A DNA stretch of 64,000 bases from Flavobacteriales bacterium (GCA_045561575.1 JBJKXM010000004.1:44924-108923), one strand, 5' to 3'. Positions 19,362 through 49,671 are shown, counted from the stretch's first letter. The notes: generated by a model not told the origin, from the letters alone. A program made the numbers and translations.

Positions 19362-19362
19362 A

Positions 19363-20177: not shown

Positions 20178-20200
20178 TTCTAAACAATAAAATATAAAAA

Positions 20201-21265: not shown

Positions 21266-21269
21266 AAAA

Positions 21270-22115
21270 GTGGATTGGTTTAAAAGAATTAAAGAAGGAA
21301 TAACTACAAAAACTTCTCAAAAGAAGGAAACAGCTGATGGTTTATGGGTTAAATGTCCAAAATGTAAAACAATTACATCTAAAGATGATTTAATCAATAA
21401 CTTATTTGTTTGTGAAAATTGTGATCATCATCATAGAATTGGTTCTGATGAGTATTTTAAGATTTTCTTTGACAATAATAAATTTAAAGAGTTAGATAAG
21501 AATTTACAATCTGCAGATCCATTAAAATTTGAAGACACTAAAAAATATGCAGATAGATTAACTACAATGAAAAAAAAGACTGGCCTAAATGATGCAATAA
21601 GGTGTGCTTATGGTAAAATAAATAAAGAAAATGTAGTTATTGCATCAATGGATTTTAGTTTTATTGGTGGATCAATGGGATCAGTTGTTGGCGAAAAAAT
21701 TGCTAGAGCAATTGATCATGCCAAAAAGAAAAAATATCCACTCATCATTATTTCAAAATCTGGAGGTGCAAGAATGATGGAAGCTGCAATTTCATTAATG
21801 CAGTTGGCCAAAACATCTGCTAAATTGGCTCAATTAGATGAATTAAAAATTCCATACATATCACTTTTAACTGATCCAACCTTTGGAGGTGCAACAGCTT
21901 CATTTTCAATGCTAGGTGATATGAATATTGCTGAACCAAATGCATTAATTGGTTTTGCTGGTCCAAGAGTAGTTAAAGAAACTATTGGAAAGGATCTACC
22001 TGAAGGATTTCAGACCTCTGAATTTCTTAAAGAACATGGTTTTATCGACTTGATTGTACATAGAAAAAACTTAAAAGAAAAATTAAGTCAATTATTAAGA
22101 ATGATTAAATCGTAA
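21270..22115 (+). CDS. accD: acetyl-CoA carboxylase carboxyltransferase beta subunit
   Basis: GTG start, the Zn ribbon CPKCK...CENCDHH, and [11 protein letters not shown]...SGGARMMEA. Confidence 0.95.
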
Positions 22116-24683: not shown

Positions 24684-25547
24684 ATGAGACAACTAAAAAT
24701 CACAAAACAAGTTACTAATAGAGAGACTGCATCTCTAGATAAATACTTACAAGAAATTGGTAGAGTTGATTTAATTACTGCTGAGGAAGAAGTAGAATTA
24801 GCTCAAAAAATTAAAGCTGGTGATGAAAAAGCTTTAGATAAAATGACAAAAGCCAATCTTAGATTTGTGGTTTCAGTTGCTAAACAATATCAAAATCAAG
24901 GTCTTACATTACCTGATTTAATTAATGAAGGAAATCTTGGGTTAATTAAAGCTGCAAAAAGATTTGATGAAACAAGAGGATTTAAATTCATTTCATATGC
25001 AGTATGGTGGATTAGACAATCTATTTTACAAGCATTAGCTGAACAATCAAGGATTGTAAGACTTCCATTAAATAAAATTGGATCAATCAATAAAATCAAT
25101 AAAGCTTATGCTGTGTTAGAACAGAAATTTGAAAGACCTCCAACTGCAGAAGAAATTGCTGAACTTGTTGATTTATCACTTACAGAAGTTAAACAATCAT
25201 TAAAAAATACAGGAAGACACGTTTCTATGGATGCTCCATTAATTGAAGGTGAAGATAGTAACCTTTATGATGTAATGGGAAGTGATGAAAGTCCTAGCCC
25301 AGATACCCAATTAATGTTAGATTCACTAAGAGAAGAAATCAGAAGAGCTTTAGATACGCTTACACCTAGAGAAGCCGATGTTGTCTCTTCTTATTTTGGT
25401 CTTAATGCAGGGCATGCAATGACACTTGAAGAAATTGGTGAAAAATTTGATTTAACAAGAGAGAGAGTTAGACAAATTAAAGAAAAAGCAGTTAGACGAT
25501 TAAAACACACTACAAGAAGCAAAATTCTAAAAACTTATTTAGGATAA
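24684..25547 (+). CDS. rpoD: primary sigma-70 factor (short Bacteroidota sigma-A)
   Basis: Regions 1.2-4 are present ([50 protein letters not shown]) in a 287-aa protein. Confidence 0.95.
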
Positions 25548-27517: not shown

Positions 27518-27881
27518 GGGGCTGACTGGATTTGACTGCAAGTTGAGTTGACTAATAAGCATGTCGAGCTTTGTGTTTTGGCTCGTTAAAATTAAAATTC
27601 AATTTTTTAATTGGCGAAAATAATTACGCTTTAGCTGCCTAATTTATAAATTAGAATAGCTTTTGTCTCTTTTAAAGGAACTCCTGAATCCTTTAATCTT
27701 GAGGCATCATTAATATCAGGATAGTTTATTTAGAGCTTCGATAAATGAACGAAACTTTTGAAGATAAGGATAAGAATTGGGTGCTATTTACCAGTCTTAT
27801 TTCGAAAATTAACAGTAGATATGCATGTAGAAAATTATTTGACACCTTGTTAGGACGTGGGTTCGAAACCCACCAGCTCCA
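27518..27881 (+). ncRNA. ssrA: tmRNA (SsrA)
   Basis: The 5' end ggggctgactggatttgac pairs with the 3' acceptor ...cagctcc-a. The T-arm is gtgggttcgaaacccac. The internal tag frame ggc gaa aat aat tac gct tta gct gcc taa (27613-27642) encodes GENNYALAA*. The terminal CCA is not fully encoded. Confidence 0.95.
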
Positions 27882-27914
27882 CAAGAAATAAACCCACTCA
27901 ATTGAGTGGGTTTT
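27879..27914 (+). repeat. direct repeat copy 1 (tmRNA 3' end plus terminator)
   Basis: ccacaagaaataaacccactcaattgagtgggtttt matches 28463-28498 at 30 of 36 positions in an ungapped alignment. Confidence 0.75.
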
Positions 27915-33448: not shown

Positions 33449-33529
33449 TATACGAAGATATAAATAATGAAAAAACAACAGATAAGTAATTATATCTATT
33501 TGATTTATTTAATTTTGAGTAAAAAAATT

Positions 33530-33886
33530 ATGTGGATAATTAAAACTGGTATAATCTTTTCTCTAATATCAATAATTTTAGGAGCATTTGGAGCTCATGC
33601 ATTAGAGAATATTATTGCAGATAAAATTGAAGTTTTTAAAACTGGAGTTCAATATCAAATTTTTCATGCTCTTGGGCTAATTTTAATCGGAATTTTATCT
33701 AAAACATTTTCTGTTGATCTAAATACAGTAGCTTACTTGATTATAGCAGGTATAATTTTATTTTCTGGATCTCTTTATCTTATTTCGATTTTTAAAACAA
33801 CATCAATAGGAATAATAACTCCTATTGGAGGTACACTGTTTATTATAGGATGGTCAGTTTTATTATTTAGGTTAAGTAATATCTAA
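33530..33886 (+). CDS. DUF423-family membrane protein
   Basis: Four hydrophobic helices and the LGAFGAHAL motif. I prefer the ATG at 33530 (MWIIKTG) because the 33467 start would overlap the CotH gene's 5' region. The start remains uncertain. Confidence 0.65.
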   Translation: MWIIKTGIIFSLISIILGAFGAHALENIIADKIEVFKTGVQYQIFHALGLILIGILSKTFSVDLNTVAYLIIAGIILFSGSLYLISIFKTTSIGIITPIGGTLFIIGWSVLLFRLSNI

Positions 33887-33892
33887 ATAACT

Positions 33893-34957
33893 CTACATTT
33901 CATCATAATCAACATAAATACTTTCTGAAGTTGGATGAGCTTGACAAGTTAATATAAAGCCTTCTTCAACATCGTCTTCAGATAATGAATAATTCAAATC
34001 CATTGAAGCTGTTCCCTCAATAACTTTTGCTTTACACACAGAACATACTCCACCTTTACATGAAAAAGGAACATCAGCACCTGCCTCAGTTGCTGCATCT
34101 AAAATTGATTGTCCACTTGTAGATAAAGTAAATTCAAAATCATCACCATCAACACATACTGTAACATTTGAAATAAGATCTGATTGGGAGTAATTTTCCT
34201 TTTTCTCATCGCTATTTTTAGGGGCAGAAAAAAGTTCAAATTTGATTTTACTACTATCAATTTCAATTAACTCTAAAAATTCGCTAACATTTTCAATCAT
34301 ATCCCCAGGACCACACATTAAAAATAAATTAGCATTTTTTAGATGAATATTTGTATCAAATAGATCTTTGAGTAATTCTCCAGAAATACGACCATTTAAG
34401 GAGCCATCAATTTTTTCCTTGGAATAAAAGTTGTAAAGATAGAAACGTTCATTGTATTTTTCTTTAAATAAATCTATTTCTTCAGAGTACATTGTAGATG
34501 AAAATGTTCTATTACCATAAATTAAGGTAAATGTACTTGAAGGTTCATTTGTTAATACGTTTTTAATCATTGACATGACAGGAGTAATTCCGCTACCCGC
34601 ACAGATTCCAACATAATGATTACTATTTTTCGTGTCAATATCAATAAAAAAGTTGCCTGTTGGAGGCATAATATTTAAAGTATCTCCTTGATTTAAATTT
34701 GAGGTTAAAAATGTAGACATTTTACCATTTTGAACAAGCTTCACTCCTATTTCAATGCCAGATTCAGGAGATGAGGAAATAGAATAAGATCTTCTTACCA
34801 TTTCATCATTAATTTTTTGTTCAACAGTAATGTATTGACCAGATTTAAATTTGAAAGTATCTGTGTCAACAGATGACAAATCAATTTCAATATTGACGGC
34901 ATCTTCAGTTAAATTTCTTATAGATTTTACAGGAACAGAAAAAAATTTATTCATCAT
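33893..34957 (-). CDS. paaE: 1,2-phenylacetyl-CoA epoxidase reductase subunit (FNR-like domain plus plant-type 2Fe-2S)
   Basis: FAD/NAD-binding motifs (RSYSISS, GAGSGITPVMS) and the C-terminal ferredoxin motif C.GG.CS.CKAK. It is divergent from paaABCD. Confidence 0.85.
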   Translation of the reverse strand: MMNKFFSVPVKSIRNLTEDAVNIEIDLSSVDTDTFKFKSGQYITVEQKINDEMVRRSYSISSSPESGIEIGVKLVQNGKMSTFLTSNLNQGDTLNIMPPTGNFFIDIDTKNSNHYVGICAGSGITPVMSMIKNVLTNEPSSTFTLIYGNRTFSSTMYSEEIDLFKEKYNERFYLYNFYSKEKIDGSLNGRISGELLKDLFDTNIHLKNANLFLMCGPGDMIENVSEFLELIEIDSSKIKFELFSAPKNSDEKKENYSQSDLISNVTVCVDGDDFEFTLSTSGQSILDAATEAGADVPFSCKGGVCSVCKAKVIEGTASMDLNYSLSEDDVEEGFILTCQAHPTSESIYVDYDEM

Positions 34958-34966
34958 TTTTTTTTA

Positions 34967-34974
34967 CAAAAATA
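34967..34974 (-). promoter_or_regulatory. -7 box (TAnnTTTG on the minus strand) for paaE
   Basis: caaaaata on the plus strand reads tatttttg on the minus strand. It lies 9 nt upstream of the ATG at 34957, implying a very short leader. Confidence 0.35.
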
Positions 34975-35035
34975 AAATATTGAAAACTTTTTTTTGCTGA
35001 AAAAATATTAAATTGATAAAATGACATATTTTCAA

Positions 35036-35043
35036 TAAATTTG
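35036..35043 (+). promoter_or_regulatory. -7 box (TAnnTTTG) for paaABCD
   Basis: taaatttg lies 19 nt upstream of the paaA ATG. A TTG at 35013-15 sits at about the spacing expected for a -33 element. Confidence 0.5.
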
Positions 35044-35062
35044 CAAAAACACAATATCTCCA

Positions 35063-35983
35063 ATGGAAGAAGCAATATTTCAAGAAAAAATTAACGCAGA
35101 AAAAAAAATTGAACCAAAAGACTGGATGCCCGAAGGCTATAGAAGTCATTTAATCAGACAAATTTCTCAACATGCTCATTCAGAAATCATTGGAATGCAA
35201 CCTGAAGGAAATTGGATTACAAGAGCTCCTTCTTTAAGAGCTAAAATGATATTACTTGCAAAAGTTCAAGATGAAGCTGGTCATGGCCTTTATCTTTACA
35301 GTGCATGTGAAACTCTAGGTATAACAAGAGAAGAATTAAACCAGCAACTACACGAAGGAAAAGCAAAATATTCAAGTATTTTTAACTATCCTACTTTAAG
35401 TTGGGCAGATATGGGTGCAATTGGCTGGTTAGTTGATGGTGCAGCTATTGTGAACCAAGTTTCTCTACAAAAGACTTCATATGGGCCATATTCAAGAGGA
35501 ATGATAAAAATATGTAAAGAAGAAAGCTTTCATCAAAGACAAGGTTATGAAATTATGGCTCAAATGGCTAATGGTACTAAAGAACAAAAAGAAATGGCTC
35601 AAGATGCTCTTAACAGATTCTGGTGGCCATCAATAATGATGTTTGGTCCTCATGATGCTGATTCTCCAAGAACTGGAAATGCCATGAAATGGAAAATAAA
35701 ACGTAAAACAAATGACGAGTTGAGGCAAAGTTTTATTGACAAAACTGTTGAGCAAGCTGAATTAATTGGACTTAAAATTCCAGATCCTGACTTAAAATGG
35801 AATGAAGAAAAAGGTTCATATGACTTTGGGGAAATTGATTGGGAGGAATTTTGGAATGTTGTTAATGGAAATGGACCTTGTAATGAACAAAGGCTAGACC
35901 ATCATAAAAAAGCACATAATGAAGGAGAATGGGTAAGAGATGCAGCTAGAGCTTATTCACAAAAACAAACTACAAATGAATAA
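35063..35983 (+). CDS. paaA: 1,2-phenylacetyl-CoA epoxidase catalytic subunit
   Basis: Di-iron ligand regions ([28 protein letters not shown]) in a 306-aa protein. Confidence 0.9.
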
Positions 35984-36260
35984 AGCTGCTACAATTTGGG
36001 AAGTATTTATACAAAGTAAAAACGGGCTTGCTCACAAACATGTTGGAAATGTTCATGCTGAAGATAAAGAAATGGCACTTCAAAATGCTAGAGATTTATA
36101 TACAAGAAGAAATGAAGGGTCATGTATTTGGGTAGTTAAATCAGAGCATATTGTATCTTCTGTTCCTGAAGATGAAGAATCATTTTTTGACCCTTCAAAT
36201 GATAAGGTTTATAGGCATCCAACCTTCTATAATCTTCCTGATGGAGTCAAACACATTTAG
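35976..36260 (+). CDS. paaB: 1,2-phenylacetyl-CoA epoxidase subunit B
   Basis: [21 protein letters not shown]...[19 protein letters not shown]...[16 protein letters not shown] aligns end to end with the ~95-aa PaaB family. I prefer the ATG at 35976 over 35940. Confidence 0.9.
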
Positions 36261-37007
36261 ATGCAAGATTTAGAAAAATACATTTTAAGAATAGCAGACA
36301 GCTCATTAATTCTTTCCCACAGATTATCTGAATGGTGCTCAAAAGGTCCAACACTAGAAGAAGATATTGCTATTTCAAACATCTCTCTTGATTTACTAGG
36401 CCGAGCTAATTCACTTTTAGAGTACTGCGCAAAAGTTAATGGAAATAAGTCAGCTGATGACTTGGCTTTCAAAAGAGATGAAAGAGAATTTTATAACTTT
36501 CAAATTTGCGAGCTTGAAAATGGTCATTTTGGAGACACAATTATTAGACAATTTTTATTTGATAGTTATGCCTCTTTATTTTTTAAGAAATTAAGTGAAA
36601 GTAAAGATGAAACATTAAGTGCAATTGCATTAAAATCCATTAAAGAAATAAATTATCATTTAAGACATTCTAGTAATTGGGTTATTAGGCTTGGAGATGG
36701 AACTAAATTAAGTAAAGAAAAAATTCAAGATTCATTAAATAAAATTTGGAAGTATACTGGAGAATTTTTTGAAATGGATGAATTAGATAATGAAATGCTA
36801 AAAAAACAAATTGGAGTAGATAATAAAGAACTTAAAAATCAATGGGATATAATTGTTAATGAAACTTTAGAAAAAGCTAAGTTAAATAGACCTAAAGATG
36901 GTTTCATGATGACAGGAAGTAAAAAAGGTATTCATACAGAACTTTTAGGTAAAATCCTTAGTGAGATGCAATATATCCCAAGAGCATATCCTGATGCAAA
37001 ATGGTAA
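36261..37007 (+). CDS. paaC: 1,2-phenylacetyl-CoA epoxidase subunit C
   Basis: The sequence LRIADSSLILSHRLSEWCSKGPTLEEDIAISNISLDLLG in a 248-aa protein, in the position between paaB and paaD. Confidence 0.85.
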   Translation: MQDLEKYILRIADSSLILSHRLSEWCSKGPTLEEDIAISNISLDLLGRANSLLEYCAKVNGNKSADDLAFKRDEREFYNFQICELENGHFGDTIIRQFLFDSYASLFFKKLSESKDETLSAIALKSIKEINYHLRHSSNWVIRLGDGTKLSKEKIQDSLNKIWKYTGEFFEMDELDNEMLKKQIGVDNKELKNQWDIIVNETLEKAKLNRPKDGFMMTGSKKGIHTELLGKILSEMQYIPRAYPDAKW

Positions 37008-37446
37008 TATAGATAAAATTTGGAATATATTAGAATCTGTTCCTGACCCCGAAATACCTGTTATTTCAGTTGTTGAGCTTGGTGTTATAAGAAAAGTTGA
37101 ATTTTTTGAAAATAACTATATTATTTCTGTTACTCCAACATATTCAGGTTGCCCTGCCGTAAAGACATTCCAAGATGATATAAAAGCTCAACTAAGAGAA
37201 AATAACATTCATAATTTTCATCTTGAAATTGTCTATAAACCAGCATGGACTACTGATTGGATGACAAGTAAAACAAAACAAAAATTAAAAGACTATGGCA
37301 TATCTCCACCAGAGAAAACCATTGAATGTCCACAATGCAATTCAACTAATATTGAGCTGATTAGTGAATTTGGTGCAACTGCTTGTAAATCTATGCATAA
37401 ATGTGTTGATTGTTTAGAACCTTTTGAACATTTCAAATGTATATAG
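36994..37446 (+). CDS. paaD: phenylacetyl-CoA epoxidase assembly subunit (SUF/MIP18-like)
   Basis: VPDPEIPVISVVELGVIR, TPTYSGCPA and a C-terminal Cys cluster (CPQC...C..C). I prefer the ATG at 36994 over the GTG at 36961. Confidence 0.8.
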   Translation: MQNGNIDKIWNILESVPDPEIPVISVVELGVIRKVEFFENNYIISVTPTYSGCPAVKTFQDDIKAQLRENNIHNFHLEIVYKPAWTTDWMTSKTKQKLKDYGISPPEKTIECPQCNSTNIELISEFGATACKSMHKCVDCLEPFEHFKCI

Positions 37447-37497
37447 GAACGTTTTAAGGCTCATTTATTATTTTTACAAAGGATTAAATCATACGAA

Positions 37498-38268
37498 ATG
37501 ATTATAAAAGAAATAAAAAATCAAATAGCTTTTCTAAAATTTGATCGACCCGATAAATACCATTCATTTATTAAAGAGATGGCTTTTGATTTACAAGAAA
37601 AGTTAGATGAATGTAAAAATGATGATAACATAAGATGTATTGTGATAACAGCTGAAGGTAAAGCTTTTTGTGCTGGTCAAGATTTGTCTGAAGCTACTAA
37701 TCCTAATGGTCCTTCATTAGAAACAATTGTCAATACTCATTATAATCCAATAGTAAGAAAAATTCGCAGTATTGAAAAACCAATAATTGCAGCTGTTAAT
37801 GGAGTCGCAGCTGGTGCAGGTGCATCTATAGCACTATGTTGCGATATAGTATTAGCAAAAAAAAGTGCTGTTTTTGTTCAAGCCTTTAGTAAAATTGGTT
37901 TAATTCCAGATAGCGCTGCTACTTTTTTTCTGCCTAGAATTATAGGATTGCAAAAAGCTGCGGGATTAATGATGACAGCAGAACCAATTTCAGCTGAAGA
38001 AGCTTGCAAAATAGGAATGATATATAAAGCTTTTGATGATGACAAGTTTGAAAGTGAGGTGCAAAAACTTGCTGAAAAACTTAGTCAAATGCCTACAAAA
38101 GGGATTGGATTAACAAAAAGACTACTTAATAAATCATTAACGAGTAATCTAAACGAACAGCTAGAAAAAGAATTAGATTATCAAATCATTGCTGGACAAA
38201 CAAATGATTTCAAAGAAGGTGTTAGTGCATTTTTAGAAAAAAGAAAACCAAATTTTAAAGGAAATTAG
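37498..38268 (+). CDS. paaG: crotonase-family enzyme, PaaG-like (1,2-epoxyphenylacetyl-CoA isomerase)
   Basis: ITAEGKAFCAGQDL and AAVNGVAAGAGASIAL motifs plus operon position. The split between PaaG and PaaF roles is inferred from gene order only. Confidence 0.6.
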   Translation: MIIKEIKNQIAFLKFDRPDKYHSFIKEMAFDLQEKLDECKNDDNIRCIVITAEGKAFCAGQDLSEATNPNGPSLETIVNTHYNPIVRKIRSIEKPIIAAVNGVAAGAGASIALCCDIVLAKKSAVFVQAFSKIGLIPDSAATFFLPRIIGLQKAAGLMMTAEPISAEEACKIGMIYKAFDDDKFESEVQKLAEKLSQMPTKGIGLTKRLLNKSLTSNLNEQLEKELDYQIIAGQTNDFKEGVSAFLEKRKPNFKGN

Positions 38269-39420
38269 ATGACAATAGGAATTATAGGCTCAGGAACAAT
38301 GGGTATTAGTATTGCTCATTTTACTTCATTAAAAAATCATAAAACAGTAGTTTATGATTCATCCAAAAAAGCATTAACTAAATCTCAAGAAGGTTTAGAT
38401 AAATTATTAGACAAACTTCATGCTAAGGATAAATATTCAAAAGAAGATATTAATAAAATAAAAAGCAATCTAAAGTTTACAAACAAAATAGAAGATCTAA
38501 AAAATTCTGAACTATTAATAGAAGCAATAATTGAAAATTTAGAAATTAAAAAAGAGGTTTTCTCTGAAATTGAAAAAATAGTAAGTAAAGAATGTATTAT
38601 TGCCTCAAATACCTCATCATTATCAATTACGGCACTTGCAAGTTCATTAAATTTAAATAATAGATTCATTGGACTACACTTTTTCAATCCTGCAAATCTA
38701 ATGCCACTAGTTGAGGTTATTCCAGCAATTCAAACATCTGAAAAAACAATCAAGAATTCTCAAGACCTTTTAAGAGAAATGGGTAAGGTTGTTGTTACTG
38801 CAAAAGATACACCAGGTTTTATTGTAAACAGAGTAGCTAGACCTTTTTACGGAGAAGCAATAAGAATATATGAAGAAGGTATTGCCAATTTTGCTACAAT
38901 AGATTGGGCATTAAAAGAATTTGGAGGGTTTAAAATGGGTCCATTTGAACTTATGGATTTTATTGGTAATGACATTAACTATACAGTTACAGAAACCGTT
39001 TTTAAAGAATTTTATTTTGACCCAAGATACAAGCCTTCATTTACCCAAAAAAAATTAAAAGAAGCTGGATATTATGGTAGAAAAAGTGGAATAGGTTTTT
39101 ATAATTATAAAAATGAAGAACCAAAGGAAATAAACAAAAACAGAGAGTTAGCTAAAAAAATAGTTTTAAGAATTTTATCAATGTTAATTAATGAAGCTGC
39201 AGATGCACTTTATCTAAACATAGCTTCCAAAGAAGATATTGATTTAGCTATGACAAAAGGTGTTAATTATCCAAAAGGTTTACTTTATTGGGCTGACGAA
39301 ATTGGAATAGAAACAGTACATACAACTTTAGTTTCACTTAAAAATAAATACAGTGAAGATAGATACAGGCCGTCCCCAATATTCCAAAATATGTTAAATC
39401 AAAACAAAAAATTTTATTAA
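38269..39420 (+). CDS. paaH: 3-hydroxyacyl-CoA dehydrogenase (PaaH-like)
   Basis: IGIIGSGTMG, ASNTSSLSIT, HFFNPA and PGFIVNR motifs. Confidence 0.8.
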   Translation: MTIGIIGSGTMGISIAHFTSLKNHKTVVYDSSKKALTKSQEGLDKLLDKLHAKDKYSKEDINKIKSNLKFTNKIEDLKNSELLIEAIIENLEIKKEVFSEIEKIVSKECIIASNTSSLSITALASSLNLNNRFIGLHFFNPANLMPLVEVIPAIQTSEKTIKNSQDLLREMGKVVVTAKDTPGFIVNRVARPFYGEAIRIYEEGIANFATIDWALKEFGGFKMGPFELMDFIGNDINYTVTETVFKEFYFDPRYKPSFTQKKLKEAGYYGRKSGIGFYNYKNEEPKEINKNRELAKKIVLRILSMLINEAADALYLNIASKEDIDLAMTKGVNYPKGLLYWADEIGIETVHTTLVSLKNKYSEDRYRPSPIFQNMLNQNKKFY

Positions 39421-39830
39421 TGTTATCTCCCTCTGATATAGTTAATAAAATGATGAGCAAGGATGCTTTTAGTAAGTGGCTTGGAATTAAAATATTAAAA
39501 ATAGAAAAAGGATATTGTCAACTGGAAATGAAAATTTCTGAAAGTATGACTAATGGATTTCAAATAGCACATGGAGGAATATGTTATTCATTGGCAGATA
39601 GTGCACTTGCTTTCGCTTCTAACTCTCATGGTAAAATGGCATTATCAATAGAAACATCTATATCTCACACCAAAAAAGTAAAGCTAAATGATACTTTAAT
39701 AGCTGAAACAGAAGAATTAAATTTAAATACAAAAACTGGATTGTATAATATTAAAATTAAAAATCAGAACTCGGAGGAAATAGCCTTCTTTAAAGGAACA
39801 GTATATTTTTCTGATAAGATTTGGAAATAA
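39420..39830 (+). CDS. paaI: hotdog-fold hydroxyphenylacetyl-CoA thioesterase
   Basis: NGFQIAHGGICYSLADSA motif in a 136-aa protein within the paa operon. Confidence 0.8.
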   Translation: MLSPSDIVNKMMSKDAFSKWLGIKILKIEKGYCQLEMKISESMTNGFQIAHGGICYSLADSALAFASNSHGKMALSIETSISHTKKVKLNDTLIAETEELNLNTKTGLYNIKIKNQNSEEIAFFKGTVYFSDKIWK

Positions 39831-39838
39831 AAAATTAA

Positions 39839-41041
39839 ATGAACACATATATAATTGATGCTATACGAACTCCAATAGGAAATTTTGGAGGAACATTAAA
39901 AGATGTAAGGACTGATGATCTCGCTGCAATTCCAATAAAAGAACTAATAAAGAGAACAAAGATTAATCCTGAAAAAATTAATGACGTTATTTTGGGTTGT
40001 GCAAATCAGGCTGGAGAGGATAATAGAAATATTGCAAGAATGGCATTATTATTGGCTGGACTACCTTTTAGTGTTCCAGGAGAAACAGTAAATAGACTAT
40101 GTGCATCTGGAATGTCAGCTATCATTAATGCTCATAGAGCAATTAAATCTGGAGATGGGGATCTTTTTATTGCTGGAGGAATAGAAAACATGACAAGAGG
40201 ACCATGGGTTTTTTCAAAAGCTTCAAAAGCATTTGGAAGAGATTCTCAAATGTTTGATTCATCTTTTGGATGGCGTTTTATAAATCCCAAGATGAAAGAA
40301 TTATATGGTACCGATGGAATGGGAACAACTGCTGAGAATCTTGCTGAAAAATTTAATATTTCAAGAGAAGATCAAGATCTTTTTGCATATAATTCACAAA
40401 AAAAAGCTTTTAGTGCCCAATCTTCTGGCAGATTTAGTGAAGAAATTGTAACTGTTAGCATTCCACAAAGAAAAAAAGAACCAATTCTCTTTAAAGATGA
40501 TGAATTTATTAAAGGAAATACATCTCTCGAAGTACTTGCTAAACTTAGAACAGCATTTAAAAAAGAAGGAGGAACAGTAACTGCTGGTAATGCTTCAGGA
40601 CTAAATGATGGGGCTGCTGCTATGTTATTAGCTTCAGATAAAGGAATTAAAGAAAATAACCTCTCTCCTATGGCAAAAATTTTAAGTTCAGCAGTTATTG
40701 GTGTTGAACCTAGAATAATGGGGATAGGTCCAGTTGAGGCTTCAAATATTGCTTTAAAAAGAGCTGGATTATCATTAGATGATATAGATATAATTGAGTT
40801 AAATGAAGCATTCTCTGCACAGGCTTTAGCTTGTATAAGATCTTGGGGATTAAAAGATGATGATTCTAGAATTAATCCAAATGGGGGTGCAATAGCACTT
40901 GGACATCCATTGGGGGTAAGTGGTACAAGAATAGTTCAAACAGCTGCGCTTGAGCTTCAAAAACAAAATAAAAAATATGCATTAATTACAATGTGTATCG
41001 GAGTAGGTCAAGGATATGCAACTGTAATAGAAAAAGTATAA
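39839..41041 (+). CDS. paaJ: 3-oxoadipyl-CoA/3-oxo-5,6-dehydrosuberyl-CoA thiolase
   Basis: Thiolase motifs NRLCASGMSA, NEAFSAQ, GGAIALGHPLG.SG and CIGVGQG. Confidence 0.9.
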   Translation: MNTYIIDAIRTPIGNFGGTLKDVRTDDLAAIPIKELIKRTKINPEKINDVILGCANQAGEDNRNIARMALLLAGLPFSVPGETVNRLCASGMSAIINAHRAIKSGDGDLFIAGGIENMTRGPWVFSKASKAFGRDSQMFDSSFGWRFINPKMKELYGTDGMGTTAENLAEKFNISREDQDLFAYNSQKKAFSAQSSGRFSEEIVTVSIPQRKKEPILFKDDEFIKGNTSLEVLAKLRTAFKKEGGTVTAGNASGLNDGAAAMLLASDKGIKENNLSPMAKILSSAVIGVEPRIMGIGPVEASNIALKRAGLSLDDIDIIELNEAFSAQALACIRSWGLKDDDSRINPNGGAIALGHPLGVSGTRIVQTAALELQKQNKKYALITMCIGVGQGYATVIEKV

Positions 41042-41042
41042 T

Positions 41043-41636
41043 ATGATTTATGAATTTAATGGGTATACTCCTGTAATTGATCCATCTTCTTATATTCACA
41101 AAGAAGCTACTATTATTGGTAACGTAATAATTGGTAAAAACGTTTATGTAGGCCCAGGGGCATCAATAAGGGGTGATTGGGGTAAAATTACTATTATGGA
41201 TGGATGTAACGTACAAGATAATTGTACTATTCATATTTTTCCTGGAAAGGATGTAATACTTGAAGAAAATGCTCACATTGGACATGGAGCAATAATTCAT
41301 GGAAGTCATATTGGAAAAAATACTTTAATTGGAATGAACTCAGTAATAATGGACGATGTAATAATTGGTGAAGAATGTATTATTGGAGCTTTATGTTTTG
41401 TTAAAGGTGAAATGAAAATTCCTAAAAGAAAAATTGTTGTAGGAAACCCTGCAGTAATAAAAGGAGAAGTTACTGATAATATGCTTGAATGGAAAAAACA
41501 AGGCACTAAACTTTATCAAAAATTACCTGATGAATGTAAAAATTTAATGTCAGAATGTAATCCACTTAGCAAAAAAGAAAAAAACAGAAAAGAAAAGCAA
41601 AAAATATCTTTTAAAACTTGGAAAAAAACAAAATGA
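41043..41636 (+). CDS. paaY: hexapeptide-repeat (gamma-carbonic-anhydrase-like) protein PaaY
   Basis: Left-handed beta-helix repeats and operon position. It has a Lys-rich C-terminal tail. Confidence 0.75.
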   Translation: MIYEFNGYTPVIDPSSYIHKEATIIGNVIIGKNVYVGPGASIRGDWGKITIMDGCNVQDNCTIHIFPGKDVILEENAHIGHGAIIHGSHIGKNTLIGMNSVIMDDVIIGEECIIGALCFVKGEMKIPKRKIVVGNPAVIKGEVTDNMLEWKKQGTKLYQKLPDECKNLMSECNPLSKKEKNRKEKQKISFKTWKKTK

Positions 41637-43672
41637 AAAATTACGAGAATTATGTATTAGGAAGTTGGATTAAAGGAGATGGAGATTTTAAATCACTACA
41701 TAATGCAATTACAGGAAAAATCATAGGACAAGCTTCAACCAAAGGACTTGATTTTAAAGATATTTTAAATTATGCAAGAAACGTTGGTGGACCTAATTTA
41801 AGAAAAATGACTTTTCAAGAAAGAGGTTTAATGCTTAAAAAGCTTGCTCTTCATTTACATGCAAAAAAAAATCTATTTTATCCAATTAGCTATTTAAGCG
41901 GTGCAACAAAAATTGACTCATGGATTGATATTGAAGGAGGTATAGGTAATCTTTTTACTAATGCTTCTTTAAGAAGACAATTTCCAGATCTCCCATTTCA
42001 CGTTGAAGGAAATGCTGCAGGACTTTCCAAAAATGGATCTTTTATTGGTCACCACATCATGGTTCCTAAGCAGGGAGCTGCTATACATATAAATGCATTT
42101 AATTTCCCAATTTGGGGAATGCTTGAGAAGATAGCTGTGAATTTAATGGCAGGAATGCCAGCAATCATTAAGCCTGCAACTATAACATGCTATTTAACTA
42201 ATGTTATGTTTGAAGAAATAATAAATTCAAAAATTCTTCCTGAAGGAAGCTTACAACTTATTTGTGGAAGTGCAAGAGGAATTCTTGATCATATTTCATC
42301 AGAAGATGTTGTTACATTTACCGGAAGCGCATCTACAGGAAAAAAATTAAAATCTCACCCAAATATTGTTGATAAAGCTGTTCCATTTAACATGGAAGCA
42401 GATTCTTTAAACTGCTCAGTTCTTGGAAAAGATTCTATTCCAGGGACAGCTGATTTTGATATTTTTATAAAAGAGGTTTTAAAAGAAATGACCGTAAAAG
42501 CTGGTCAAAAATGTACAGCAATTAGAAGAATTATTGTTCCAAGTGAATTAGTGAATGATGTAAATAAAGCACTATCATTAAAACTATCTAAAACTAGTAT
42601 TGGAGATCCTCAAGTTGAAGGTGTAAGAATGGGAAGTCTAGCTGGTAAAGAACAAGTTGAAGAAGTATCTGAAAAAATTAATCAACTAAGCAATTCTCAA
42701 AAAATCATATTCCAAAAAAATCTTGAGCTAGTTGGAGTAGAAAATGAAGATGGCGCTTTTATATCTCCTACTCTATTTTTAAATGAAAAACCATTTCAAA
42801 ATACAGATTGTCATGATATTGAGGCATTTGGTCCAGTAGCTACTATAATGCCCTATGATAATTTAGATGAAGCTATAGAACTTAGTAGGATGGGGAAAGG
42901 TTCATTAGTATCTTCAATTATTACAAATGATATGAAAACTGCTAATGAATTTGTTTTAGGTGCTGCCAGCTTGCATGGAAGAATTTTAGTGTTAAATGAA
43001 TCTTGTGCAAAAGAAAGTACTGGTCATGGATCTCCAATGCCACTACTTACCCATGGTGGTCCTGGACGAGCAGGAGGAGGTGAAGAAATGGGGGGTATAA
43101 GGGGAATAAAACATTATCTTCAAAGAACAGCTATTCAGGGTCATCCAACAACAATAACTGCAATAACAAAACAATATCAAGTAGGTGCAAAACAAAATAC
43201 TAAAGGTCCACATGTGTTTTACAAACATTTTGATGAAATAGAAATAGGAGACACTGTAATAACTGAAAAACATACTGTAACTCTTGATGATATTGAAAAT
43301 TTTGCAGATCTAAGTGGAGATAAGTTTTATGCACATATGGATGAAAATTCACTTGAAGACACTATCTTTACGGAAAGAGTTGCTCATGGATATTTTATCA
43401 TGTCTAAAGCAGCTGGATTATTTGTTAAGCCTGAAAAGGGTCCGGTTCTTTTAAATTATGGAATTGATGAATGTAGATTTACCAAACCTGTATACCCTGG
43501 AATGACAATTGGAGTAAAATTTACAGCAAAAGAAAAAATAGTGCAAGAAAAAAAAGAAGATGAAAATTTTGAAAAAGGAATTGTAAAGTTTTTAGTTGAT
43601 GTTTATGATGATGAAAATGAAACCGTAATGCTTGCAACTATATTAACAATGGTTAAAAAAAATAAAATATGA
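41633..43672 (+). CDS. paaZ: bifunctional oxepin-CoA hydrolase / 3-oxo-5,6-dehydrosuberyl-CoA semialdehyde dehydrogenase
   Basis: N-terminal ALDH domain (catalytic GQKCTAIRR) and a C-terminal MaoC hotdog domain (FADLSGDKFYAHMD). The ATG at 41633 overlaps the paaY stop as ATGA. Confidence 0.9.
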   Translation: MKNYENYVLGSWIKGDGDFKSLHNAITGKIIGQASTKGLDFKDILNYARNVGGPNLRKMTFQERGLMLKKLALHLHAKKNLFYPISYLSGATKIDSWIDIEGGIGNLFTNASLRRQFPDLPFHVEGNAAGLSKNGSFIGHHIMVPKQGAAIHINAFNFPIWGMLEKIAVNLMAGMPAIIKPATITCYLTNVMFEEIINSKILPEGSLQLICGSARGILDHISSEDVVTFTGSASTGKKLKSHPNIVDKAVPFNMEADSLNCSVLGKDSIPGTADFDIFIKEVLKEMTVKAGQKCTAIRRIIVPSELVNDVNKALSLKLSKTSIGDPQVEGVRMGSLAGKEQVEEVSEKINQLSNSQKIIFQKNLELVGVENEDGAFISPTLFLNEKPFQNTDCHDIEAFGPVATIMPYDNLDEAIELSRMGKGSLVSSIITNDMKTANEFVLGAASLHGRILVLNESCAKESTGHGSPMPLLTHGGPGRAGGGEEMGGIRGIKHYLQRTAIQGHPTTITAITKQYQVGAKQNTKGPHVFYKHFDEIEIGDTVITEKHTVTLDDIENFADLSGDKFYAHMDENSLEDTIFTERVAHGYFIMSKAAGLFVKPEKGPVLLNYGIDECRFTKPVYPGMTIGVKFTAKEKIVQEKKEDENFEKGIVKFLVDVYDDENETVMLATILTMVKKNKI

Positions 43673-44415
43673 AAAAAATTATACTAATATTTTTAATAAT
43701 ACCTAGCTTTTTAATAGGACAAAACGGACCGACTGCAAGTTTCATTTATAATCCAGTATGTCTTGGAACTAACATAGTATTAACAGATTTTTCATATCCT
43801 GATTTTAATACAAACTCTCCTATTGTGTCATGGGATTGGGAATATAATGGGAATATTATTTCGACTCAACAAAATGCAGATTATCTTTTTTCTCAGTGTG
43901 GACTTTACGATATTATTTTGACTGTTACAGACGCAGATGGTTTTTCAGATGACACTACTATTAATGTAGAAATATTTTGCCCACCAACAGCTGATTTTAT
44001 TAATGATGTTGTATGCTTTGGAGATCCAACAAACTTTGTTGATGTTTCATCACCAGGTGATGGAACTCCACCATTAAATTCTGGATCAACATGGATGTAT
44101 GTTTTTGGAGATGCGGACCCTCCAAATGCTGTAAATCCAAATTGCACTGCTACTTTTAACTATGCAGGTATACACCCTGTCACCTTTATTGTTTCTGAAA
44201 TTCAGTTTAACGGACAATATTGTATAGACTCCATTGTAAAAGATGTTCAAGTAGACTCATGTACTGTTGGGATAGAAAACATATTTAATGTTCAAAAGAA
44301 AAAAATTATTAATAACTATAATATATTAGGAAAATCCAGAAAAATTAATTCAAGAGATTTAAATATTATTATTTACAGTGATGGTACAGTAGAAAAAAAG
44401 ATAATAATTAAATAA
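43669..44415 (+). CDS. secreted PKD-like repeat protein with a T9SS-type C-terminal tail
   Basis: Signal peptide MKKIILIFLIIPSFLIGQ. Two PKD-like modules follow (PTASFIYNPVCLGT...WDWEYNG...GLYDIILTVTDADG and PPTADFINDVVCFGD...). The tail is ...YNILGKSRK...IIYSDGTVEKKIIIK. Its start overlaps the paaZ stop as ATGA, and the next gene starts 1 nt after its stop. Confidence 0.7.
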   Translation: MKKIILIFLIIPSFLIGQNGPTASFIYNPVCLGTNIVLTDFSYPDFNTNSPIVSWDWEYNGNIISTQQNADYLFSQCGLYDIILTVTDADGFSDDTTINVEIFCPPTADFINDVVCFGDPTNFVDVSSPGDGTPPLNSGSTWMYVFGDADPPNAVNPNCTATFNYAGIHPVTFIVSEIQFNGQYCIDSIVKDVQVDSCTVGIENIFNVQKKKIINNYNILGKSRKINSRDLNIIIYSDGTVEKKIIIK

Positions 44416-45171
44416 ATGGAAGGGTCAGTAGAACTAAATATCAATAACAATATTGGTACAATTGAATTTTACCATCCACAAAGTAATTCACTTCCTTCAA
44501 ACATACTAGAAAAGCTAGCAAAAACTATTGAAGAATGTGGCGATAATGATAATATTAGTGTTATTATTATGAAGAGCAAAGGAGATAGAGTATTCTGCGC
44601 AGGAGCTTCATTTGATGAACTTTCTAGCATCTCAAATTTTAATGAAGGTAAATCTTTTTTTATGGGTTTTGCTAATGTGATCAATGCTTGTAGAAAATGT
44701 CCAAAACTAATTATCTGTAGAGTTCAAGGAAAAGCAGTAGGTGGTGGTGTTGGAATGGCTTGTGCTGGTGATTATTGTTTTGCCACAAAATTCTCTGCAA
44801 TAAAGTTAAGTGAACTTGCAGTAGGGATTGGACCATTTGTAGTTGGACCTGCTGTAGAAAGAAAATCTGGACTGTCAGCATATTCAACATTATCAATAAA
44901 TGCAACCAAATGGTTTAGCGCTGAGTGGGCACAACAAAAGGGAATATATGCTGAAGTTTATGAATCTAACGATTTAATGGACGAGGCTATAAATAAGTTA
45001 GCTCATGAACTAGTAAATTCAAATCCTGAAGCCACTAAAAAATTAAAAGAAGTCTTTTGGGAAAATGCTAATAATTGGGATGAATTATTGAAAGAGAGAG
45101 CGGAATATAGTGGTCAATTAGTTCTCTCAGAATTTACAAAACAAGCCATAGCTAGATTCAAAAAAAAATAA
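44416..45171 (+). CDS. enoyl-CoA hydratase/isomerase family protein (possible PaaF role)
   Basis: Crotonase motifs (KGDRVFCAGASFDEL, GKAVGGGVGMACAGD). Confidence 0.7.
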   Translation: MEGSVELNINNNIGTIEFYHPQSNSLPSNILEKLAKTIEECGDNDNISVIIMKSKGDRVFCAGASFDELSSISNFNEGKSFFMGFANVINACRKCPKLIICRVQGKAVGGGVGMACAGDYCFATKFSAIKLSELAVGIGPFVVGPAVERKSGLSAYSTLSINATKWFSAEWAQQKGIYAEVYESNDLMDEAINKLAHELVNSNPEATKKLKEVFWENANNWDELLKERAEYSGQLVLSEFTKQAIARFKKK

Positions 45172-47226
45172 GTGGCAAACATTAAAAAAGAAATACTAGA
45201 AAAAGCATATCGTTTAATTTGCACTGCTCGTTCTCTAAGTTCAATTTATGAAGAGAATAAAGAAATAACATCAAAATACGTTCATGCAACGTCTAAAGGT
45301 CATGAAGTAATTCAAATTGCACTGGCATTACAATTAAAAAAACATGATTGGGTTTCACCATATTACAGAGACGATTCAATTTTACTTGGAATTGGGATAA
45401 AACCTTATGAACTTATGCTACAATTGATGTGTAAAAAAGATGATCCTTTCTCTGGAGGAAGAACATATTACTCTCATCCATCATTAAAGAGAGAAAATAT
45501 GCCAAAAATTATTCACCAATCATCTGCTACTGGAATGCAAGCAATACCAACAACCGGAATTGCACTAGGCTTGAGATATAAATTTAAAAATAACTTTAAA
45601 GATACAGAATTAGAAAAAAATCCTATTGTTGTATGCTCATTTGGTGATGCATCAATTACTGAAGGAGAAGTTGCTGAGGCATTCCAAATGGCATCTCTAA
45701 AAAAACTTCCAATTTTATATCTTGTGCAAGATAATGAATGGGATATTTCTGCTCATTCATCAGAAACAAGAGCAGTTGATGCTGCAACATATGCAAAAGG
45801 ATTCGGAATAAAAAGCTACTCTATTGATGGAACAAATTTTGAAGAATCATACAACATTATTTCTAAGTCAATTTCTGAAATAAGAAAAAATTCTTACCCA
45901 ATACTAATACACGCTAAAGTTCCTCTACTTAATCATCATACTTCTGGAGTGAGAATGGAATGGTATAGAGATGATCTTGAACAAGCAAAAAAAGATGATC
46001 CCTTTCCAAAACTTGAAAAATTACTAATTGATAATAATTTTCAAGAATCTAAATTAAATGAGATAAAAAAAGAAATTGATAAGGAAATTGTTGAAGAATT
46101 TAAAAAAGCAATGGAGGCTGCTGATCCAGAACCTGAAGATTTATTTAAATATAAATTTTCTCCAACTGATATAAATAAGGAAGTTGGTAATAGAAGCCCT
46201 GAAAACAAAGAGAGTATTTTTATGGTAGATGCAGGAATCTGTGCCATAAAAGAATTAATGGAAGATCATCCAGAATGTCTTTTATATGGGCAAGATGTTG
46301 GAAAAAGATTAGGAGGTGTATTTAGAGAAGCAGCAACACTTGGGGAGCATTTTGGAGATGAAAGAGTTTTTAATACTCCTATTCAGGAGGCATTTATAAT
46401 TGGAAGTACTGTAGGTATGTCTGCTATTGGTTTAAAACCTATAGTTGAAATTCAATTTGCTGATTATATTTGGCCAGGTCTGAACCAATTATTTACTGAA
46501 GTAAGTAGATCGTATTATCTTTCAAATGGAAAATGGCCTGTGAGTTGTGTTATTAGAGTTCCAACAGGGGCATACGGAAGTGGAGGGCCATATCACTCTT
46601 CATCTGTTGAATCTATACTAACAAATATCCACGGTATTAAAATAGCATACCCATCAAATGCAGCGGATTTAAAAGGGTTGTTGAAAGCTGCTTATTATGA
46701 CCCTAACCCAGTAGTAATACTTGAGCATAAAGGACTTTACTGGGGAAAAATAAAAGGAACTGAAGACACAAAAACAATTGAACCATCCAAGGATTATATT
46801 ATACCTCTTGGAAAGGCAATATCAGTTTTACAAGCAAATAAACAAAACATTGATTTAGGAAAAAGCTTGTGTATTATTACTTATGGAATGGGTGTTTACT
46901 GGGCTAAACAAGCAGCAAATAACTACAAAGGTCAAATAGAAATTATCGATCTTAGAAGTCTCTACCCTTTAGATGAAGAATATATCTACAGCAAAGTAAA
47001 AGAACATAGCAATTGTATTGTAGTAAGTGAAGAACCTAGTCAAAACTCATTTGCTCAATCGCTTGCATCAAAGATCTATAAAAACTGTTTTGAATTTCTA
47101 GATAATTCTATATCTGTTATAGGATCAGAAAATCTTCCAGCAATTCCTTTAAATTCAATTTTAGAAGAAAGAATGTTACCAAGTTCTAAAAAAATAGAAA
47201 TTGAAATAAAAAAGATCCTTGAATAA
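45172..47226 (+). CDS. fused E1 alpha/beta subunit of a TPP-dependent 2-oxoacid dehydrogenase
   Basis: GTG start directly after the upstream stop. The N-terminal half is E1-alpha-like (FGDASITEGEVAEAFQMA) and the C-terminal half is E1-beta-like (FNTPIQEAFIIGSTVGMS, IVEIQFADYIWPG). The protein is 684 aa. Confidence 0.8.
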   Translation: MANIKKEILEKAYRLICTARSLSSIYEENKEITSKYVHATSKGHEVIQIALALQLKKHDWVSPYYRDDSILLGIGIKPYELMLQLMCKKDDPFSGGRTYYSHPSLKRENMPKIIHQSSATGMQAIPTTGIALGLRYKFKNNFKDTELEKNPIVVCSFGDASITEGEVAEAFQMASLKKLPILYLVQDNEWDISAHSSETRAVDAATYAKGFGIKSYSIDGTNFEESYNIISKSISEIRKNSYPILIHAKVPLLNHHTSGVRMEWYRDDLEQAKKDDPFPKLEKLLIDNNFQESKLNEIKKEIDKEIVEEFKKAMEAADPEPEDLFKYKFSPTDINKEVGNRSPENKESIFMVDAGICAIKELMEDHPECLLYGQDVGKRLGGVFREAATLGEHFGDERVFNTPIQEAFIIGSTVGMSAIGLKPIVEIQFADYIWPGLNQLFTEVSRSYYLSNGKWPVSCVIRVPTGAYGSGGPYHSSSVESILTNIHGIKIAYPSNAADLKGLLKAAYYDPNPVVILEHKGLYWGKIKGTEDTKTIEPSKDYIIPLGKAISVLQANKQNIDLGKSLCIITYGMGVYWAKQAANNYKGQIEIIDLRSLYPLDEEYIYSKVKEHSNCIVVSEEPSQNSFAQSLASKIYKNCFEFLDNSISVIGSENLPAIPLNSILEERMLPSSKKIEIEIKKILE

Positions 47227-47288: not shown

Positions 47289-49671
47289 ATGAAAAAAACA
47301 CACTTTATTTTCTTATTGTTAACCTTATTATGTTACTACAGTTATGGTCAAAAAAATTACACCATTAGCGGATATGTTCAAGAATCTGAAAGTGGTGAAA
47401 ATTTAATTGGAGTATCTATTTACGATAAAGAAACATTTAAAGGTACAGTAACTAATCAATACGGATTCTACTCACTAACCTTAGAAGAAGGAAATTATGA
47501 AATTATCTATTCTTTTATAGGTCTAGAATCGACAACTAAAAAGGTTAACCTAAGCAAAAATTTAAGAATCAACATTTCTCTTGAGAGTAATGCTATCATT
47601 ACTGAAGAAGTAATAGTTACAGGAGAAAAACTTGACAAAAACGTAAGTAGTTCAAAAATGAGTCAAGTCAAAATTGAAGTAAATAACATCAAACAACTTC
47701 CTGTTATTTTAGGTGAAGTAGATGTATTAAAATCTGCTCAATTATTACCAGGAATCACATCAAATGGAGAGGGAAGTTCAGGATTATATGTAAGAGGCGG
47801 AGGACCTGATCAAAATCTTATTCTTTTAGATGAAGCGGTTGTTTACAATGCCTCGCATTTGTTTGGCTTCTTTTCTGTCTTCAATGCAGATGCAATTAAG
47901 GATATAAACATAATTAAGAGGAGGAATGCCTGCAGAATATGGAGGACGACTATCATCAGTTTTAGATATAACAATGAATGATGGAAATAATAAAAAATAT
48001 CAGGCAGATGGAGGTATTGGATTACTTTCATCTAGATTAACTTTACAAGGGCCTATTCAAAAAGAAAAAAGCTCGTTTATTGTTTCAGCAAGAAGAACAT
48101 ATATTGATGTACTATCAAAGCCTTTTCTTAACAGAAAAGACCCTGAAACTGGAGAACCTAATGCATTTGCCGGATCAGGATACTTCTATGATCTAACAAC
48201 TAAAATTAACTATAGATTATCTGATAAAGACAGATTATATCTAAGTGGATATTTTGGAAGAGATGTTTTCAGTTTTGCCAATGCAGACAATGGTTTTGCT
48301 ATTGAAATTCCATGGGGAAATGCTACTGGATCATTAAGATGGAATCATTTATTTAATGATAAATTATTCATGAACACATCTGTAATTTTCAGTGATTATA
48401 GATTTGAATTTAATCTTGCTCAAAGTGAATTTGAATTCAAAATATTTTCAGGAATTAATGATTGGAATACAAAAGTTGATTTTTTATATCAACCAAATCA
48501 AAGACATACAATTAAATTTGGAACCAACTATACATATCATGTCTTTACTCCTGGAAATGCAACAGGGCGATCTGGAGATGTAGAATTTGCACCAGATGAG
48601 ATATTTAGACAATACTCAAATGAAGGTGCCTTATATTTTTCTGATGATTTTGAATTAAGTGATGATATTAAAATTAATGCTGGTTTGAGGTATTCATCAT
48701 TTCAACACAGAGTAGATATTAATTTATTAAGATATGTTTCAAATGATTTAACTTTTAGTTCAGATAATTACAGAAATATTGAACCTAGATTTTCTCTTAG
48801 ATATAAACTAAATCCAACAAGTTCAATTAAAACTTCTTACACAGAAAACTATCAATATATTCATCTTGCATCTACTTCCTCTGTTAGTTTACCAACTGAC
48901 CTTTGGGTTCCAAGTTCTACAGCTATTAAACCTAAATTCTCTAAGCAGTACGCAATTGGATACTTTAAGAACTTTAAGGAAAATATGTATGAGACTTCAT
49001 TAGAAGCTTATTACAAGGAAATGACTAATTTAATTGAATATAAAGAAGGTTTTTTACCTGAAGACAATACAAATCAAAGTAGTGACAATTCTTTTACATT
49101 TGGTGATGGAGACTCTTATGGAATTGAATTATTACTTAAAAAAAATCAAGGAAAAACAACGGGTTGGATTGGTTATACATTATCAAAAACAACTAGATAT
49201 TTTGATGAAGTAAATAATGGAATTGAATTTCCAGCAAAATATGATAGGAGACATGATTTATCCATTACTGCAACTCATAAATTATCAAAAGCATGGGTAT
49301 TGAGTGGAGTTTTTGTTTATGCAACAGGAAATGCTATAACTCTTCCTACAGAAAGATATGTTATTGGTGGTGATGTTTATACCCAATTTACATCAAGAAA
49401 TGGATATAGAATGGATCCATACCATCGTATGGATATTGGTGCAACTTACACACCTTCAAAAAAGAAGAAAAAGAAGTTTAAATCAACATGGAATTTTTCT
49501 ATCTATAATGTATACTCAAGAAAAAACCCATACTTTATTTATTTTGCTCTAGAAGGTTTAGAAGAAAACGGTGAAAATCAAAATATCCAAAACGGAAATG
49601 TTGAACCTAAAGCATACCAAGTTTCTATTTTCCCAATATTACCGTCCGTAACATGGAACTTTAATTTTTAA
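47289..49671 (+). pseudogene. TonB-dependent receptor (CarboxypepD_reg-like N-domain + plug + barrel) split by a +1 frameshift near 47918
   Basis: ORF 47289-47981 carries the signal peptide, the carboxypeptidase-regulatory-like domain and the start of the plug, and ends in the out-of-frame sequence ...NIIKRRNACRIW. ORF 47926-49671 begins within the conserved plug motif, (G)GMPAEYGGRLSSVLDI, and ends ...TWNFNF. Removing 1 nt at attaag|a|ggaggaatg restores IIKGGMPAEYGG. Confidence 0.8.

Follow-up and report, generated by a model that had tools for sequence, protein, structure and literature searches.

A paa operon lacking a CoA ligase in marine Flavobacteriales, and a possible phenylpyruvate entry through its embedded fused E1

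The paa pathway is a main bacterial route for aromatic carbon, and its textbook version begins with an ATP-consuming ligase. The question that we address here is how phenylacetyl-CoA might be supplied to a paa cluster in which no such ligase is found. The cluster occupies positions 33893–47226 of a 64,000-nucleotide stretch of DNA from Flavobacteriales bacterium (GCA_045561575.1, JBJKXM010000004.1:44924–108923), referred to at its full length as the window, and its last gene codes for a fused alpha/beta E1 component of a 2-oxoacid dehydrogenase. We tentatively regard the region as a phenylalanine-degradation operon, into which substrate would be fed not as free phenylacetate through the ligase PaaK but by the action of this E1 on phenylpyruvate, a reading to which we would give slightly less than an even chance.

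The cluster, its missing ligase and its E1 gene

The region is a complete, intact operon for the aerobic breakdown of phenylacetyl-CoA in an uncultured, AT-rich marine Flavobacteriales lineage (the G+C content is 28.7% over the whole window and 24–33% in individual 2-kb intervals), and all 15 cluster genes are full length. The map of open reading frames (ORFs) places paaE on the minus strand, followed by a 105-bp spacer and an unbroken plus-strand run ending at 47226 in the order paaA-B-C-D, a paaG-like gene, paaH-I-J-Y-Z, an ORF with a PKD domain, a second crotonase gene (ECH2), and the fused E1 gene. A gap of 51 nt (37447–37497) separates paaD from the paaG-like crotonase gene, and the spacers downstream of it are 0, −1, 8, 1, an overlap, −4, 0, and 0 nt. 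An earlier, sequence-only reading of the window had listed the same genes, and ORF calls together with NCBIfam and Pfam profile scans reproduce that list in full; the divergent paaE, the 51-nt gap, and the tight packing that it described are also borne out, all spacers after the gap being of at most 8 nt or overlaps. Because the family matches are strong, the cluster can be assigned to ring epoxidation, isomerization, and opening: the multicomponent epoxidase PaaABC(D)E is present, as are PaaZ, with both its ALDH and MaoC domains, and the PaaG isomerase. In the lower pathway the PaaJ thiolase and the PaaH dehydrogenase are clear, and ECH2 is the sole candidate for PaaF.

The same reading had seen neither a CoA ligase nor a regulator in the 64 kb, and a Pfam scan of every ORF of at least 100 amino acids in the window agrees. 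There is no AMP-binding ligase or CoA-transferase among these ORFs, no GntR or TetR regulator of the PaaX or PaaR types, and no pyruvate/indolepyruvate ferredoxin oxidoreductase domain; proteins of regulatory type are limited to a sigma-70 factor (24684–25547) and a receiver/PglZ protein (3695–5059). Relatives of the cluster were gathered by a PaaZ-anchored scan that took a single genome for each species and gave 80 loci, not including the window's own genome, and by a tblastn survey with the window proteins, two long marine contigs (L082 and L083) being added through their E1. In the window and 83 related loci (1.47 Mb in all) E. coli PaaK and PaaX give no tblastn match at E ≤ 1e-3. Neither a ligase nor a regulator is present among the variable ORFs inserted in related clusters, which are DUF6428, BaxI, metallo-beta-lactamase, or transglutaminase-like proteins, cargo of the type IX secretion system (T9SS), or ORFs with no Pfam match, and the Pfam-annotated neighborhoods of the two marine contigs have none either. 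A hidden ligase among the unassigned ORFs of the 80 PaaZ-anchored loci was also considered and none was recognized; by eye, the ORFs of 420–450 amino acids near paaZ are an MFS transporter, a kynureninase, an amidohydrolase, an E2, a photolyase, and NqrF. The sole AMP-binding protein that we met (in locus L008, 649 amino acids, ACAS_N) is acetoacetyl-CoA synthetase-like and part of an adjoining homogentisate module. A paa cluster with no ligase or regulator is not unusual in itself, since among 25 surveyed genomes that carry paaABCD the paaK gene was inside the paa cluster in only 21 of its 37 occurrences, and paaX and tetR homologues were found 13 and 14 times, respectively (PMC2653477).

The E1 gene (45172–47226, plus strand) encodes a single chain of 684 amino acids of the branched-chain 2-oxoacid dehydrogenase (BCKDH) type. 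Both the alpha and the beta half are full length, the E1_dh, Transket_pyr, and Transketolase_C domains are all recognized, and the thiamine pyrophosphate (TPP)/Mg motif is intact, with GDAS followed after 28 residues by QDN, in alignment with the GDGATSEGD...ENN of Thermus thermophilus 1UM9. Of 15 multi-gene paa loci, 13 have the gene inside the paa cluster, and none of the 13 multi-gene clusters with enough sequence lacks it (the window, L001–L004, L006–L009, L021, L039, L082, and L083); it is also found with paaZ-ECH2 in L005, and in L029 it is located 6 kb downstream of them. Three gene orders keep it, namely Z-E1-G-J-ECH2 (L003), Z-E1 (L021), and, in the majority of loci, Z-(insert)-ECH2-E1, and the ECH2 stop and E1 start codons abut or overlap in eight loci. 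In L007–L009 the cluster and its E1 adjoin genes for 4-hydroxyphenylpyruvate dioxygenase, homogentisate 1,2-dioxygenase, fumarylacetoacetase, a flavin reductase, a class I/II aminotransferase, and a ligase resembling acetoacetyl-CoA synthetase, a neighborhood that forms an aromatic amino-acid catabolic island (the tyrosine/homogentisate pathway). To judge from these arrangements, the fused E1 appears to be no chance neighbor of the paa genes. An E2 gene and a gene for a 908-residue E1 that lie beside paaZ in L045 and L053 were set aside, as they are SucA/SucB and their link with paaZ is most likely coincidental.

Among the 80 PaaZ-anchored loci, the closest to the window's cluster is that of L001, from a metagenome-assembled genome (MAG) labeled uncultured Weeksellaceae, with 87% identity in PaaZ and full synteny from paaE through E1 and beyond. 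The ligase-less arrangement occurs mainly in a marine Flavobacteriales clade, together with MAGs labeled Neomarinimicrobiota and Saprospiraceae; the clade is plentiful in ocean metagenomes, those of Tara among them, and PaaZ and E1 are 63–100% identical at the protein level across many independent metagenome contigs. The layout without ligase and regulator is therefore the standard one for this marine clade. It differs from the flavobacterial PaaK-PaaY-PaaR arrangement already described (PMC13186573).

Some loci depart from this pattern. L045 and L053 have a shorter paaI-J-Y-Z block. Most of the loci L010–L080 have a full-length PaaZ (66–71% identity) either alone or as PaaZ-VOC-ECH2, with no paaABCD within 10 kb, and are labeled Crocinitomicaceae, Vicingaceae, Parvicellaceae, and the like; in these lineages either the paa genes are scattered or PaaZ has another role. 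The MAGs of L007–L009 are labeled Neomarinimicrobiota and have a G+C content of approximately 40%, a PaaZ with 74–75% identity to that of the window, and no paaE nearby, which suggests either transfer of the whole module across phyla or mis-binning.

Routes to phenylacetyl-CoA

In the scheme that we propose, phenylalanine would be converted to phenylpyruvate by a transaminase, and the operon's E1 would oxidatively decarboxylate phenylpyruvate, acylating the lipoyl arm of an E2 whose gene is located elsewhere; this E2 would release phenylacetyl-CoA. The steps that follow are given by family membership: PaaABCDE epoxidizes the ring, PaaG isomerizes the epoxide to oxepin-CoA, PaaZ opens the ring and carries out the oxidation, and PaaI and PaaY act as thioesterases that clear dead-end thioesters and rescue CoA. 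It is the gene context that suggests the phenylpyruvate entry step, and this is the most economical reading, since phenylpyruvate is the sole 2-oxoacid obviously tied to the paa pathway. Stated in full, the proposal is that the E1 is that of a phenylpyruvate (aromatic 2-oxoacid) dehydrogenase complex that replaces PaaK and provides an ATP-free, oxygen-tolerant entry for phenylalanine in marine Flavobacteriales and in the MAGs labeled Neomarinimicrobiota and Saprospiraceae; in this form we consider it possible, with doubt somewhat outweighing belief. The sequence-only reading had suggested a supply of phenylacetyl-CoA that does not depend on PaaK; this is plausible and has a candidate in the fused E1, although absence of a ligase and a regulator from 64 kb does not show their absence from the genome. 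In the literature that we searched, which is incomplete, we found no account of a 2-oxoacid dehydrogenase E1 that belongs to a paa cluster or supplies phenylacetyl-CoA, and nothing specific on a phenylpyruvate dehydrogenase complex as a feeder of the paa pathway or on this cluster in Flavobacteria.

Several observations weigh against the phenylpyruvate reading. There is no E2 or E3 gene in the window, and none adjoins any of the paa-linked E1 genes that we examined. Orthologues of the E1, 62–64% identical to that of the window, stand alone in other Flavobacteriales MAGs (one of them labeled Vicingus serpentipes), where they are approximately 80% identical to one another and occur in unrelated contexts, and in a neighbor-joining tree the paa-linked copies are not monophyletic. 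Because of these stand-alone orthologues and the lack of a separate paa-linked clade, the family may be a general, perhaps broad-specificity, 2-oxoacid E1, or a branched-chain E1 merely placed here, and the substrate specificity of an E1 cannot be read from its sequence alone. It is also possible that PaaK, or an indolepyruvate/phenylpyruvate ferredoxin oxidoreductase, is encoded elsewhere in the genome. Further along the pathway, ECH2 has a Gly at the position of the first catalytic Glu of hydratases and keeps only the second Glu, and the PaaF step is to that extent putative.

We also considered a paralogue of E1 dedicated to the paa pathway, but rejected it: there is one orthologous family, with 62–87% identity, with stand-alone copies, and with paa-linked copies that do not group together. 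Directly after the stand-alone fused E1 in two other contigs of Flavobacteriales type there is a conserved gene for a 227-residue alpha/beta-hydrolase/thioesterase (L085, 10102–10785; L086, 10127–10810), and in L086 a 4HBT thioesterase gene comes next.

The alternative that survives best is that this is an ordinary paa cluster, with PaaK and a regulator encoded elsewhere, and that the E1 is a housekeeping branched-chain E1 (supplying iso-fatty acid primers) that by chance is the last gene. We doubt this account, while regarding it as a serious possibility. It gains from the kinship of the protein: the nearest solved structures are the BCKDH E1 enzymes of Pseudomonas putida (2BP7/1QS0) and T. 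thermophilus (1UM9), and JGI names the homologues 2-oxoisovalerate dehydrogenase E1 component, a fused form that we take to be KEGG K11381. The high conservation of the orthologues that stand alone in other Flavobacteriales (approximately 80% among families) is also in its favor, as is the common location of paaK outside paa clusters in other bacteria, where it was found in 16 of 37 occurrences in the 25-genome survey, with regulators present only 13–14 times (PMC2653477). A chance position is harder to reconcile with the retention of E1 in the paa cluster across three gene orders and three taxon labels, with its translational coupling to ECH2, and with its place beside the tyrosine-catabolic genes in L007–L009, and PaaK was not found by tblastn in the 1.47 Mb of the window and related loci. 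A second, distant fused E1 alpha/beta protein also bears on the housekeeping role. It is encoded in L022, a related MAG (19137–21566, minus strand), two genes from a class IV aminotransferase, and has 809 amino acids and 27% identity to the E1 of the window; this protein is a candidate for the true branched-chain E1 in Flavobacteriales. Since this paralogue exists, the housekeeping role might not fall to the paa-linked family.

In a second alternative, which we consider improbable, phenylacetyl-CoA comes, like that of Phaeobacter, from an indolepyruvate/phenylpyruvate:ferredoxin oxidoreductase, its gene being located elsewhere, and the role of E1 is unrelated. Ferredoxin oxidoreductases that are sensitive to oxygen would be less expected in a flavobacterium of the aerobic surface ocean, and there is no POR/IOR-type gene in the 64 kb or among the neighbors that were scanned or Pfam-annotated, even though an Ior1-dependent, PaaK-independent route has been documented experimentally (PMC5577590). 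That the cluster is a decaying remnant, non-functional after loss of its entry enzyme, is very improbable indeed, as 15 of 15 genes are full length and PaaZ and E1 retain 63–100% identity across many independent contigs, a 1-nt frameshift in the neighboring TonB-dependent receptor gene being the one sign in its favor.

If the phenylpyruvate reading is correct, abundant protein- and peptide-feeding Flavobacteriales of the ocean degrade phenylalanine by a ligase-free variant of the pathway, which surveys anchored on PaaK would miss. A function would also be gained for a fused E1 family that is widespread but variously annotated (as "thiamine pyrophosphate-dependent enzyme", "tungsten formylmethanofuran dehydrogenase", or "2-oxoisovalerate dehydrogenase E1"). 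If the genome has a PaaK gene at some other place, the cluster is an ordinary one.

Genes, promoter region and neighbors

Of the individual genes, paaE (33893–34957, minus strand) encodes the reductase subunit of phenylacetyl-CoA 1,2-epoxidase, with TIGR02160 as its best hit at 353 bits, below the cut-off of 420; over 353 amino acids, its full length, the protein is 38% identical to PaaE of E. coli (identities here and below are to the E. coli K-12 Paa proteins), and the divergent position of the gene is kept in L001, L003, and L021. All others are on the plus strand. The catalytic epoxidase subunit is encoded by paaA (35063–35983; TIGR02156, 513 bits against a cut-off of 280), followed by paaB (35940–36260 as the longest ORF; TIGR02157, 135 bits), paaC (36261–37007; TIGR02158, 290 bits), and paaD (36961–37446 as the longest ORF, its start being uncertain; TIGR02159, 161 bits). 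The true start of paaB is probably some 18 codons further in, because the TIGR02157 alignment begins at residue 19. After the 51-nt gap come the paaG-like gene, for an isomerase of crotonase fold (37498–38268; TIGR02280, 308 bits; 46% identity to PaaG), paaH, for a short 383-residue form of 3-hydroxyadipyl-CoA dehydrogenase (38269–39420; TIGR02279, 411 bits; 41% identity to PaaH), paaI, for a hot-dog thioesterase (39420–39830; TIGR02286, 104 bits), and paaJ/pcaF, for 3-oxoadipyl-CoA thiolase (39839–41041; NF006551, 618 bits with a cut-off of 605). The hexapeptide-repeat thioesterase gene paaY (41043–41636; TIGR02287, 240 bits; 48% identity to PaaY) is followed by paaZ (41618–43672; TIGR02278, 872 bits with a cut-off of 563), which codes for the bifunctional oxepin-CoA hydrolase/semialdehyde dehydrogenase. 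PaaA, B, C, D, J, and Z exceed their NCBIfam curated cut-offs.

The divergent second crotonase ECH2 (44416–45171) was identified in the family and Pfam scans. It lies downstream of paaZ in 21 of the 84 sequences searched, the window counted, and because some of these are loci without E1 we infer that its association is with paaZ. No other gene is a candidate for the hydration step of PaaF, for which ECH2 is a probable stand-in. An identification of ECH2 as canonical PaaF is unsupported, as E. coli PaaF matches the paaG-like gene alone in the window and the first Glu is missing.

Between paaZ and ECH2 there is a small ORF of 248 codons (43669–44415; PKD_4, 41 bits) whose product has a signal peptide and is predicted to be secreted, and which sits, with a 4-nt start/stop overlap, within a cytoplasmic catabolic operon. 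Its C-terminal tail is T9SS-like by eye, with no match to the Pfam family Por_Secre_tail. The ORF is confined to the nearest relatives (L001, L002, L081, and L082) and appears to be a passenger gene in a variable slot. In other relatives the slot around paaY/paaZ/ECH2 holds unrelated passengers (DUF6428, BaxI, a metallo-beta-lactamase, and a transglutaminase-like protein), to which a YdeI-like ORF and a VOC/glyoxalase-like ORF can be added by eye only.

The 105-bp spacer between paaE and paaA (34958–35062) contains motifs of a divergent promoter region, with Bacteroidetes-type −7 boxes in both orientations, TAAATTTG at 35036–35043 on the plus strand and TATTTTTG at 34967–34974 on the minus strand, and L001 and L003 keep both of them. 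After the intergenic TAnnTTTG box that precedes paaA, the plus strand has another only past E1, before the TonB receptor gene. Transcription of the plus-strand run is probably from one Bacteroidetes-type promoter in this spacer, and a single transcript from paaA to E1 fits, because no plus-strand intergenic −7 box lies between paaA and the end of E1; a scan for sigma-70-type promoters and terminators gave matches no more numerous than in shuffled sequence. Any specific regulator would be encoded outside the window. An inverted 9-mer, TATTGAAAA at 34978–34986 and TTTTCAATA at 35029–35037, brackets the spacer, overlaps the −7 box of paaA, and is conserved in L001, and the equivalent place in L003 is taken by another perfect palindrome, ATATCATATGATAT. 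Both may be operators at which a regulator acts in trans, the support for the 9-mer being weak because the window has 12 copies of it, with 7.8 expected.

The operon is followed by a TonB-dependent receptor gene (47289–49671) that a single additional T at 47914 splits into two ORFs (47289–47981 and 47926–49671). In L001 and L082 the orthologues (793 and 794 amino acids, respectively) are intact, and the frameshift is either that of a pseudogene or an assembly error. We considered the TonB receptor/DUF4249 pair as an uptake system for phenylacetate and rejected it, as its synteny is confined to the nearest relatives and the receptor gene is frameshifted in the window. Upstream of paaE are a small DUF423 gene (33467–33886) and, beyond it, a gene for a 768-residue protein with a CotH kinase domain (31172–33478, minus strand), which has no NCBIfam family match. 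The window's only Rfam or ARAGORN match is a tmRNA gene (27518–27884, plus strand) with the tag peptide GENNYALAA.

Comparison with known systems

The paa genes of E. coli K-12 and P. putida (paaZ, paaABCDEFGHIJK, and paaXY) share with the window an enzyme set for ring epoxidation, isomerization, hydrolytic opening, and beta-oxidation-like steps, and PaaA–E, G, H, I, J, Y, and Z are all recognizable, with 38–48% identity in PaaE, G, H, and Y. The window's cluster differs in having no PaaK, PaaX, or PaaR, in having a single-Glu crotonase instead of canonical PaaF, in its divergent paaE and the position of paaZ inside the operon, and in the additional PKD ORF and fused E1.

Other paa clusters have been described among Flavobacteriia with PaaK (PAL), where a ligase-anchored survey found full-pathway paa clusters and an association of PaaY with PaaR (PMC13186573). 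These clusters are from the same order, Flavobacteriales, and have PaaY in common with the window, whereas the window's cluster has neither ligase nor TetR-type PaaR and does have an E1 gene.

The nearest parallel for the proposed entry step is the Ior1 bypass of Phaeobacter, in which an indolepyruvate:ferredoxin oxidoreductase converts phenylpyruvate to phenylacetyl-CoA (PMC5577590). By analogy, phenylalanine in the window's lineage would likewise pass through phenylpyruvate straight to the CoA thioester, with no need for free phenylacetate or ATP; the candidate enzyme differs in being a lipoamide-dependent E1, encoded within the paa operon itself and known here from its sequence. That E1 resembles the BCKDH E1 enzymes of known structure (2BP7/1QS0 and 1UM9), which are its best sequence matches, in its three domains and intact TPP motif, and it is unlike them in the fusion of its two halves in one 684-residue chain, in having no adjacent E2 or E3 gene, and in its location in an aromatic catabolic operon. 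The enzymology is thus that of the known paa pathway, and it is in the layout and the embedding of E1 that this cluster differs from those described.

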